Assembly (NCBI GenBank): GCA_028873795.1
Contig: JAPPNP010000054.1
Coordinates: forward strand, 17,099 to 81,098
DNA length: 64,000 nucleotides
Reading direction: 5' to 3'
DNA from: Chloroflexota bacterium
GTDB lineage: Bacteria; Chloroflexota; UBA11872
Notes under the pieces: model-generated
Databases searched by the model: none
Seen by the model: only the letters and a program-made list of their open reading frames with translations
What the model was told of the DNA's origin: nothing
Position numbers and translations under genes: made by a program
In this document: in pieces, positions 26,371 to 29,056 of the stretch
Layout: each line of letters opens with the position of its first letter
Numbering within the stretch: position 1 is the first letter of the stretch

Positions 26371-27402
26371 CTAGCTCCCGATGAACGCTGATTCCGGGTA
26401 GAAGTCTCGCCAGGCCCAGTCGAACGAGGATGTCCACGGCACTGGGCTAAGGGCTTGGCCCGCCAGCGGGCCGCTGAGCGCCAGACCGTTGACCGCGCTC
26501 CAGACTGTGCCCGTCTCGTGATCGCGCAGGGTGTCGTCGCCCGCTGGGTCGAAGTTCAGCACGCGGTTCGCCACTCGACGCAAGTAGGCCCGCACGGTGC
26601 CTGTGGCCTCATCGACCCAGACCAGCACGGGCTCATCGCCGACCGTCAGCTGCACCAATCCCGCGACCCGCGCGTGGCCGAATTCGACCGCCGCGGCCGC
26701 GTCCCCCAGGGCGAGGCCGACTACCCAGTTCTCGCGAGGCGTCGCCAGGACGAGGCGCGGACCGCTCAGGCCGTTGGCCAGCACCCGCGCGTCGGGATGG
26801 CGCGCGCGGAACCCGGCCCAGGTGTCAAGGGTCGAAGGAATTTGCGTGAGGGTCGCACCTCGAAGCTCGCCGACCAGGGCCCGGCCAATCGGCTGGCTCC
26901 AGATGCTGCCCGTCGAATGGTCGAACCACGTCATGGCGGTCTTGTACAGCGCGCCCTGATTGCCAAAGACCAGCGACTGGCCCTCGAATCGCCGGTCGTG
27001 CACGAGACCGGTGTAGCAAAGCGGTCACCAGGTGACGAGCACCGGCGTGCCGCCGACGACGTCGTTGACCATCTCGCGCCGGTTGAGCGTGGTGACCGGA
27101 TAGGCGCGGGCCTCACCGCCGATCACGAGTCCGATGACCAGCTCATCCGGCTGCAGCGGCGCATCGACGGCGGCAACGAACTGCGGCGCGTAGATGGGCG
27201 GGATGGCGTCGCGGCTGAGGCGCTGGTCGTAGGCCGAATCGAACATCATCCGCTCGTGCGGATCGGGGAGGTCCTGCGGCGGCCGTGCGACTCGCGAAGC
27301 CTCCGGCGAGCCGCGAATCGCCCACACCAGGGCCAGCGCACCCACTGCTGCCAGGGTCAGCCCGACTGCGACCACTGCCGCGATTCCTAGTCGACGCCGC
27401 AT
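26371..27402 (-). CDS. DUF3179-family selenoprotein (UxxC), read through the TGA at 27025-27027
   Basis: ORFs 27025-27402 and 26371-27003 are in the same frame. The join reads VTW-TGA-PLCYTG, matching the family T(Y/W)CPLC motif. DAIPPI, GEARAYP and TGSIWSQ motifs present. Confidence 0.85.
26992..27011 (-). promoter_or_regulatory. Candidate bacterial SECIS hairpin
   Basis: mRNA CCGGUC-UCGUGCAC-GACCGG stem-loop starting 13 nt after the UGA. Confidence 0.55.
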
Positions 27403-27457: not shown

Positions 27458-29056
27458 TCAGCGCAGCGCGACCTGCAGCGCCTGGGCGATGTCGTCCACC
27501 GGAATGAAGGTGATGTCGTCGTGGATTCGGGGCGGAAGCTCGTCGAGGTCGCGCTCGTTGCCGCGCGGCAGCACCACGCGGCGCACGCCGGCGCGATGGG
27601 CTGCGAGCACTTTCGGCGCGACGGCGACGGTGGGCTCGACCCGACCGTCCACCGACAAGCTCCCGGTCGAGGCAAGCTCCGGGTCAACCGGACGATCGCG
27701 TGCCAGGGACACGATCGCGATGGCCACGGCAAGCGCCGCAGCGGCCTGGTCGTTGCTCAAGGTGCTGCGTGGCACCTCGACGTGCATGTCGAACTCCTGC
27801 AGGAAACGCGCCGAGACTTGAAGATCCGACAGACGCGCGCGGATGGCCGCGGTGACGACCATCAACTCCCTTGAGACATCGGCGCCATTCGTGTCGAGCA
27901 TCGATATCCGACCTAGCCCGGGTATGAGGGCATGGCCGAGCCCGGGCATGAGCACCGCCAACACGACGCCGTGCCGACCTCCGTGCTCATCAATCACCAG
28001 TGCGGCGGTATGGCCGCGTCGTTGCGCGCGGCGGTCGCGACGCTCAGGAAGGAGCGGTCTGCCGGCAAGATCGAACAGGTCTTCGCTCGCGATGACGCTC
28101 GGAGTGTCGGCACGCTGCACGCCGGCGACCAGGGACCGGCGGACGATGCGCCGTAGCAGGTCGTCCAGTCGAGCGACGCCTGCCTCGTCGGTGTAGCTCC
28201 GGATCAGCACCAGAAGGGCGTTGCCGTCAATCGTCAGGTCGGTGGGGGTCAGGCCATGGTCGGCCAGCGCCGCAGGCATCAGGGTTCGCCGGGACAGCTC
28301 GGTTTTCTGATCGATCAAGAAGCCGGGTAGCTCCGCGACGTCAAGCCGAGACAGGTCGTCCGCCGACAGGGATTGGGTCCAGCGGCAGGTGACGATGATG
28401 AGCGTGTGCGAGAGATCGAAGGGAACGTCGAAGAACGGGTCGCGGACGCTGGCGCGCCGGTGAGCGTCGGTGAGCCGCGCCAGCAGTGTGCCGATGTCGG
28501 CGCCCCATCGTTCGGCGGCGCGGTCGAGTCCCGCCAGTACAACCACGGCCTGGTCCGACTGCGCCTGCTCAACGGCGCCCATGAGCGCACCCGGCTGGCC
28601 GCGGCGCTGCCAAATCTCCGCCGCCGCGCCGAGTTGTGCCAGGTCAATGACCTCAACTGGTCGGTCAAGCACCCTTGCAATGGTTCGCGCGACAACCGTC
28701 TTGCCCACTCCATCGGGTCCGTGCAGGCAGAGGAGACGCTGCGGTGCGTGCGACGGTTGGGCGGCTGTTTGGCGGGCGTCGTGCGCTGTCACATGTTCGG
28801 CAATGGTCGCAACGGCTTGCGGCGGCGCGAAGTGCTCGGACTCCAGGGCGCTCCTGAGCGGGGCGATCGCGAGGGGTTTCGCAGGGCCGCGTGTCCAGGG
28901 CAGTCCGATGGCACGCGTGAGGCTTGCGCTGTCCGCCTTGGAATCATCCAAGCGTGCGGACAAGGCTTGGGCCGCCTCGTCGGGCAAATCGGCCTCGGCG
29001 AGGCGAGTCCGCAGGTCGGCTGGATCCACCGTGCACTCCACCCCGGCGACACGCAC
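27458..29056 (-). CDS. Lon protease homologue (AAA+ plus S16 domain), probably inactive
   Basis: Walker A GPDGVGKT, DPFFDVPFDLS, YTDEAGV and KVLAAHRAG are present. The PKDGPSAG motif reads SNDQAAAA. Confidence 0.85.
   Translation of the reverse strand: MRVAGVECTVDPADLRTRLAEADLPDEAAQALSARLDDSKADSASLTRAIGLPWTRGPAKPLAIAPLRSALESEHFAPPQAVATIAEHVTAHDARQTAAQPSHAPQRLLCLHGPDGVGKTVVARTIARVLDRPVEVIDLAQLGAAAEIWQRRGQPGALMGAVEQAQSDQAVVVLAGLDRAAERWGADIGTLLARLTDAHRRASVRDPFFDVPFDLSHTLIIVTCRWTQSLSADDLSRLDVAELPGFLIDQKTELSRRTLMPAALADHGLTPTDLTIDGNALLVLIRSYTDEAGVARLDDLLRRIVRRSLVAGVQRADTPSVIASEDLFDLAGRPLLPERRDRRAQRRGHTAALVIDEHGGRHGVVLAVLMPGLGHALIPGLGRISMLDTNGADVSRELMVVTAAIRARLSDLQVSARFLQEFDMHVEVPRSTLSNDQAAAALAVAIAIVSLARDRPVDPELASTGSLSVDGRVEPTVAVAPKVLAAHRAGVRRVVLPRGNERDLDELPPRIHDDITFIPVDDIAQALQVALR

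Follow-up and report, generated by a model that had tools for sequence, protein, structure and literature searches.

The minus strand of the window (the whole stretch of 64,000 nucleotides analysed here) reads GTC ACC TGG TGA CCG CTT TGC TAC, and the TGA of this sequence occupies 27027-27025. The question raised by this locus is whether the TGA ends a gene, or is decoded as selenocysteine (Sec) inside a gene that has been annotated in two parts. The source is a sponge-associated Chloroflexota bacterium. Most of the sequencing runs in which the stretch occurs carry the label sponge metagenome, and no RNA runs are listed among them.

The split gene and its family

If the TGA is read through, the frame extends from ATG at 27402 to TAG at 26373-26371 and encodes 343 residues, including the motif W125-U126-P127-L128-C129. 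The TGA is the sole interruption of the frame 27402..26371 (-). C129 is the only Cys in the 343-residue protein, which has one Sec besides. With translation table 11, the same frame is divided into ORFs of 125 aa (27402..27025) and 210 aa, the latter with a GTG start (27003..26371). The codons TGG TGA CCG CTT TGC and the 343-aa open frame given in the original prediction are both borne out by the sequence. The features of the locus, all on the minus strand, are as follows.

26371..27402, minus: gene read as a complete selenoprotein gene of the DUF3179 family (PF11376), with one in-frame UGA, 343 codons and a TAG stop (Pfam, frame)
27025..27027, minus: UGA codon, Sec residue 126 (invariant Cys in homologues, TGA kept in relatives)
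27016..27018, minus: Cys129 codon TGC, partner of U126 in U-P-L-C (sequence; invariant in both homologue alignments)
26992..27011, minus: putative SECIS hairpin, stem 27011-27006/26997-26992, loop 27005-26998 UCGUGCAC (synonymous constraint specific to Sec forms)
27316..27399, minus: N-terminal hydrophobic helix, residues 2-29, probably a signal anchor or export signal (sequence and model)
26818..27117, minus: first predicted Rieske-like beta domain, about residues 96-195, with U126-x-x-C129 (model, structural matches)
26410..26709, minus: second predicted Rieske-like beta domain, about residues 232-331, without Cys (structural matches, internal repeat)

The protein matches Pfam DUF3179 (PF11376) with an E-value of 2.1e-64 and 218.2 bits, against a cut-off of 27. 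The match is in two stretches, and the best of them (residues 64-210) spans the TGA. No family is found among the NCBIfam profiles. In an alignment with 17 full-length homologues, column 126, where the TGA lies, is Cys in 17 of 17 sequences, and W125 and C129 are invariant too. In a larger alignment of 59 homologues, W125 and C129 are again invariant and C126 is present in at least 90%. The invariant residues are found mostly in the first domain (E110, D114, W125, C129, R137, L152, D161, W168, Q170, and G178). Thus the first half carries the W-C-x-x-C motif of the family, and the TGA corresponds to its invariant first Cys, the correspondence to PF11376 that the original prediction expected.

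A protein search yields 288 matches among 8000 scored candidates. The best 20 of them (P0002-P0021) are each exactly 210 residues long and 82-100% identical, and they are the same truncated gene call as the 210-aa ORF of the window. The expectation that gene callers split this gene is thereby confirmed. Two of the 288 matches are named "DUF3179 domain-containing (seleno)protein" by NCBI.

Sec variants of the family had been described as known, and the literature goes beyond what was implied. The tables of two reviews (PMC9312934, PMC13188914) contain DUF3179 as a UxxC/T selenoprotein family, and these reviews credit Zhang & Gladyshev 2007 (PMC1976440) for it; section 12 and further passages of PMC1976440 do not name DUF3179. 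As a member of a family with an existing selenoprotein entry, the gene is to be expected. It does not represent a novel kind, because of the tabulated UxxC/T entry and the two "(seleno)protein" names. The word "hidden" in the original prediction is accurate with respect to gene callers, but not with respect to the field.

Decoding of the in-frame TGA

DUF3179 matches are present in 40 of 41 related genomes, including the genome of the window itself. Among the 12 genomes of the genus, 11 have a full-length match with a single TGA, and in all 12 the TGA is at the same codon. The twelfth genome, G005, contains the gene in two pieces (C1:1046814-1047272 and 1048301-1048876, locus L036) separated by about 1 kb, and the first piece has the TGA. 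The split suggests that the gene has undergone an insertion or a rearrangement. TGA forms are also seen in eight genomes of five other genera (G014, G029, G030, G033, G035, G037, G038, and G040). In G034, the DUF3179 copies have several stops. Seven genomes of the genus g3 contain an uninterrupted form with TGC or TGT at the site. The proteins of the genomes that keep the TGA are as low as 44-59% identical, with one TGA, at the same codon, and both halves in frame. The downstream half, whose decay would have spoken for a pseudogene, is intact and conserved.

A wider scan with one genome per species yielded 460 relatives, and the 80 loci most similar to the query were kept. The titles of these 80 loci are of Chloroflexota type, except for one "Actinomycetes" and two plain "bacterium". 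The TGA form is present in 78 of the 80 best loci. These correspond to 80 TGA genes, because L064 and L073 have two each; L060 and L121 went unparsed. In L130 and L131, Sec copies are adjoined by three genuine Cys copies. Two other "Cys" matches, in L075 and L116, turned out to be false positives of the search pattern. The 80 loci are those closest to the query, and their high share of Sec therefore characterizes the orthogroup, not the whole family. Tandem pairs of Sec-type DUF3179 genes are found in L064 (3199-3252 and 4332-4385) and L073, on some Dehalococcoidia and Anaerolineae contigs.

A quick tree with 108 rows groups 88 Sec genes with 10 Cys genes (SH-aLRT 99), and outside this group are Cys paralogues only. 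The Cys label requires five changes on the tree, three of which are forced by well-supported branches. It can be read as a single gain of Sec followed by a few losses; this is a reading rather than a result, because the tree is quick and its root is arbitrary.

The Sec machinery is present in the genome of the window (3.18 Mb, 89 contigs, estimated to be 96.6% complete). tRNA-Sec scores 71.3 bits and is called SeC(tca) by ARAGORN. SelA is found with 499.9 bits, SelB with 295.9 bits (its 638-codon frame also contains a second match, to the end of the selB model), and SelD with 376.3 bits. All four are above the curated cut-offs, so the genome contains the complete set that was to be sought. SelD is itself a candidate selenoprotein, because selD has one in-frame TGA of its own, in GAG-U-ACKL. 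This selD (G000:C75:179515-180441, locus L020) has a GGCGCA-CGUGA-UGCGCC hairpin about 30 nt downstream of its TGA. Elsewhere in the window TGA does serve as a stop: the upstream Lon-like gene terminates with it at 27460-27458. TGA is therefore not reassigned genome-wide.

The 6-bp hairpin noticed past the UGA is also present. CCGGUC (27011-27006) pairs with GACCGG (26997-26992) across an 8-nt loop, and the structure begins 13 nt after the UGA. Folded alone, it has an energy of -10.6 kcal/mol. The 81-nt region shows z = -1.47, with 16 of 200 shuffles folding equally well. The genome is G+C-rich, and when 3993 windows of 27 nt are placed in it 12 nt behind random TGA triplets, 8.7% of them reach -10.6 or better. 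Taken alone, the 6-bp hairpin is not beyond chance. It rises above chance because it is conserved across orthologues.

The 21 nt ACC GGT CTC GTG CAC GAC CGG are near constant in every TGA form, while the codons vary in Cys forms. To quantify this, 17 Sec and 7 Cys orthologues were aligned by codon, leaving out the incomplete or broken L036, L049, L050, and L051. In the Sec set, the mean third-position entropy of codons +5 to +11 is 0.121, the lowest of 276 windows (rank 1); the gene as a whole averages 1.06. For the Cys set, this 7-codon window has an entropy of 0.753 (rank 228 of 288). Over the whole gene, nucleotide identity among the Sec set is as low as 51%. Loci L024-L133 contain 94 Sec genes with 45 distinct 27-nt versions, some genomes being counted twice. 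All 45 distinct versions have a hairpin at the same spot. The Sec versions fold with a mean energy of -10.3 kcal/mol; the corresponding mean is -5.3 for 14 distinct Cys versions, and the genome background stands at -6.0. In thirteen of the 45 versions the hairpin pairs in a shifted register, GGCAUG..CAUG(A)CC, and in 3 of these 13 the Asp codon is replaced, giving a continuous helix. G and U are present in the apical loop of nearly all versions.

When the register of the 6-bp stem is kept fixed, pairing is seen in 86.3% of cells across the 45 sequences, with no double-sided pair changes, and 10 of 500 shuffles reach the same level. RNAalifold does not recover the hairpin, and the window has no Rfam match at the gathering threshold. 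For these reasons the evidence is constraint specific to Sec forms, not covariation. A second hairpin (26997-26968), which the minimum-energy fold of the single sequence favors over the first, was rejected, as the codons of its 3' arm vary freely among orthologues. The exact 16-nt hairpin core occurs once in the genome, so the hairpin is not a repeat. We read the hairpin at 27011-26992, a stem-loop shortly 3' of the UGA, as the SECIS element.

These facts can be set against two explanations that do not involve Sec. The TGA could be a true stop, in which case the locus would be either the remains of one gene or a pair of small genes encoding 125 and 210 residues. Table 11 gives exactly both ORFs and public sets have the 210-residue piece; moreover, about 1 kb separates the two pieces of the G005 gene, and the G034 copies have several stops. 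Such a history is hard to reconcile with two halves kept in frame around one TGA at the same codon at 44-59% protein identity, with a single Pfam domain that spans the TGA and aligns it to an invariant Cys, or with the coexistence of Sec machinery and a SECIS-type element, and we consider a true stop highly improbable. Slightly more improbable still is that an assembly or sequencing error put TGA in place of TGC or TGT, or that TGA is read other than as Sec, whether by general reassignment or by near-cognate read-through. Cys codons are indeed seen at the site in genus g3 and in adjacent paralogues, but the same TGA is found in 88 distinct Sec-form genes from many independent assemblies. Contigs of three runs besides the probable source (X2, X6, and X7) span 27025-27027; they differ from the window at 4 of 530, 5 of 186, and 19 of 500 bases, respectively, and among the differences listed for them none is between 26756 and 27118. 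General reassignment is contradicted by the TGA that ends the Lon-like gene, and the downstream synonymous constraint is specific to TGA forms, which is expected for SelB-dependent decoding. The in-frame UGA lies opposite the Cys of homologues and the sequence is conserved on both sides of it, as in bacterial selenoproteins. That 27402..26371 (-) is a real Sec-decoded gene is thus, in our judgement, very highly probable, and the original prediction proved right on every point that could be checked.

Predicted fold, location, and gene neighborhood

AlphaFold2 with 60 sequences gives a model (pLDDT 89.0, pTM 0.80) with a helix at residues 2-29, a disordered linker, and beta structure thereafter. 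In a full-library structural search with the C-terminal half (232-331), the top 44 of 50 rows are Rieske proteins with Z between 9.5 and 5.7, the best being 2qpz_A (Z 9.5, rmsd 3.0, 92 residues aligned). The rows below them are unrelated proteins with Z of 5.1 or less. The N-terminal domain modelled alone has pLDDT 94.4, and its top 45 rows are of Rieske type. Its best match is 3c0d_A (Z 7.8, rmsd 3.2, 95 aligned), and 2qpz_A reaches Z 7.7; the structural tool warns that Z under 8 can reflect just a common arrangement, and the motif-bearing domain is at 7.8. The resemblance is weak by Foldseek, which gives nothing at E <= 0.001 for the full-length model or the N-terminal domain model. The PDB contains no sequence relative of the protein, and a protein-atlas search with a natural Cys homologue gave no usable match.

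The two halves form an internal repeat, with 31% identity over 100 residues (E 3e-8). In the repeat alignment, U126 is opposite D264 and C129 is opposite T267. The models thus predict two tandem Rieske-like beta domains without Fe-S ligands. The Rieske ligands CxH...CxxH are absent from this protein with its one Cys and one Sec, and there is no match to Pfam Rieske at E <= 0.01. The scaffold is accordingly Rieske-like on the predicted models, but not that of an iron-sulfur protein, because the ligands are absent. Based on our reading of the strand order, U-x-x-C would be on a hairpin turn before the place of the first ligand loop of Rieske proteins. A thioredoxin fold is not indicated, as the modelled domains are all-beta and there is no thioredoxin-type Pfam match.

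The N-terminus consists of MRRR followed by 23 hydrophobic residues, in line with the membrane or signal segment originally proposed, and it resembles a signal anchor. In the same genome, the N-termini of three Cys paralogues carry RR-type signals, after which come a lipobox (LAAC or LAGC) and linkers rich in Pro, Thr, and Ala. The full-length homologues likewise have signal-like or lipoprotein-like N-termini. The N-terminal helix, together with the RR signal and lipobox of the paralogues, suggests that the Sec protein is exported or located outside the cytoplasm.

Upstream of the gene, and sharing its strand, is a Lon-like AAA protease; downstream is a convergent Gfo/Idh/MocA oxidoreductase. 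The Lon-like protein (27458-29056, minus strand) contains AAA, Lon lid, and Lon_C domains without the long N-terminal domain, and its gene ends 55 nt upstream of the selenoprotein start. In ORF clustering of 81 loci, the Lon-like neighbor is seen in 8 loci of close relatives only, so no operon function is proposed. Beyond close kin, only one neighbor cluster recurs in this clustering, in 15 loci.

In 15 of 80 loci the Sec gene is followed, within about 0.3 kb downstream, by a Redoxin/AhpC-TSA-like gene, and 14 of these 15 genes lie on the strand of the Sec gene. The Redoxin-like gene contains an in-frame TGA in EFGSFT-U-PYCGMAAPS, with a conserved GGGAUGGCGGCGCCAUCC hairpin directly after it. 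The protein matches Pfam Redoxin (E 6e-8) and AhpC-TSA, and shows a weak deiodinase match below the cut-off. It has no obvious signal peptide, and the Redoxin-like gene has no match in the genome of the window. This neighbor is a second candidate selenoprotein.

L069:3803-4573, plus: Redoxin-like candidate selenoprotein (TGA in FGSFT-U-PYC, hairpin, Pfam); also in L065, L066, L073, L075, L079, L081, L082, L088, L099, L112, L116, L117, L119, and L123

One Cys paralogue has a fixed neighborhood of its own.

G000:C4:24829-29433 (L134): Cys-type DUF3179 lipoprotein paralogue between gamma-glutamyltranspeptidase and ctaA (heme A synthase)

The arrangement of L134 is repeated in L137-L140. Gamma-glutamyltranspeptidase is within 2.5 kb of the Cys paralogue in at least 27 of 41 genomes (a hand count in which four genomes were not judged). 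CtaA directly adjoins the Cys paralogue in all 13 genomes of the genera g1 and g2, and is about 3-4.5 kb from it in 7 of the 16 genomes of the family f2. CtaB and/or cytochrome oxidase subunit II are near the Cys paralogue in the loci examined. Although it concerns a paralogue, this neighborhood suggests that the family takes part in thiol or metal chemistry on the outer side of the membrane.

Two other paralogues (G000:C27:119952-121745 and G000:C14:40603-42312) have the motif YCTLC. In both, an extra N-terminal region of about 200 residues, which matches nothing in Pfam, separates the lipoprotein signal from the DUF3179 domains. In G035, two gamma-glutamyltranspeptidase matches (C3:1329399-1330667 and 2380439-2381707) have one in-frame TGA each.

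Possible function and comparison with known systems

The best overall explanation, which we regard as likely, is an intact Sec-type DUF3179 gene with SECIS decoding, whose product is an exported two-domain protein with a reactive U126/C129 center. SelB and Sec-tRNA(Sec) would bind the hairpin as a bacterial SECIS, and Sec would be inserted at residue 126. The N-terminal helix would then anchor or export the protein, which would therefore hold its tandem Rieske-like domains outside the cytoplasmic membrane. U126 and C129, on the predicted beta-hairpin turn of the first domain, would constitute the reactive center. Most likely this center cycles between a selenol/thiol and a selenenylsulfide, or else it may bind a soft metal. 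By analogy, the function would be selenol/thiol redox or metal handling outside the membrane. The Redoxin-like neighbor in 15 of the 80 loci provides a redox context, although it shows no obvious signal peptide and is not matched in the genome of the window. This functional part is built on the motif, the predicted location, and analogy, because the fold Z scores are middling and the neighbors are not conserved beyond close kin.

Whether the U126/C129 center is for selenol/thiol redox or for metal binding is roughly evenly balanced. The more specific proposal that U126-x-x-C129 is mainly a metal site, for copper or another soft metal, on a Rieske-derived scaffold, with the protein serving as an extracytoplasmic metallochaperone or sensor, is possible, and we entertain it tentatively. 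Both domains resemble the metal-cluster domains of Rieske proteins, the Cys paralogues have RR-type signals resembling those of the Tat pathway, which often exports folded cofactor-bearing proteins, and in g1, g2, and f2 genomes the Cys paralogue is linked to CtaA and to CtaB/cytochrome oxidase subunit II. Several metal-handling selenoprotein families with UxxC also appear in the tables of the two reviews (PMC9312934, PMC13188914). All four Rieske ligands are missing, on the other hand, with no CxH...CxxH, and the cytochrome oxidase linkage belongs to the paralogue, not to the Sec orthogroup.

A wider view of the family can be speculated, although we consider it rather unlikely as a whole. DUF3179 might be an unrecognized extracytoplasmic class with two cluster-less Rieske-derived domains, which gained a Cys/Sec-x-x-Cys on a hairpin turn and handles thiols or soft metals at the cell surface. 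One paralogue might work with gamma-glutamyltranspeptidase and cytochrome oxidase assembly, and an early switch to Sec might have occurred in one orthogroup and persisted through much of Chloroflexota.

DUF3179 belongs to the selenoprotein families without known function, and no functional study was found in the full-text literature for DUF3179 or PF11376. Several leads open its function to testing: the tandem Rieske-like fold of the models, a Sec form that is near-universal in one Chloroflexota orthogroup, the strongly conserved SECIS, and the Cys paralogue fixed between gamma-glutamyltranspeptidase and cytochrome-oxidase assembly genes. What is added here is the N-terminal membrane helix and the tandem Rieske-like domains, both from models, and the gene neighborhood of the Cys paralogue. 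As for annotation, the gene and at least 20 close relatives stand as 210-residue fragments in public sets; these should be joined and marked as selenoproteins.

Compared with the DUF3179 selenoproteins in the review tables, this gene has the same Pfam family, the same Sec position, and the same UxxC motif, without an assigned function in either case. The difference is that this copy and its close relatives are still called as fragments. Rieske [2Fe-2S] proteins, such as naphthalene dioxygenase ferredoxin (2qpz) and PetC3 (5cxm), are alike in fold on the predicted models, but they differ in the CxH...CxxH ligands, in place of which this protein has one Cys and one Sec. Thioredoxin-fold UxxC selenoproteins (Redoxin/AhpC-TSA-like and DsbA-like) also have Sec first in U-x-x-C, whereas the fold modelled here is all-beta and Rieske-like. 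The SECIS of the E. coli fdhF type, in its commonly described features, is likewise a stem-loop in the coding sequence just 3' of the UGA, and the G and U in the apical loop of nearly all versions strengthen the likeness. The putative SECIS of the DUF3179 gene differs from it in the short stem of 6 bp and in the shifted register of a minority of relatives.
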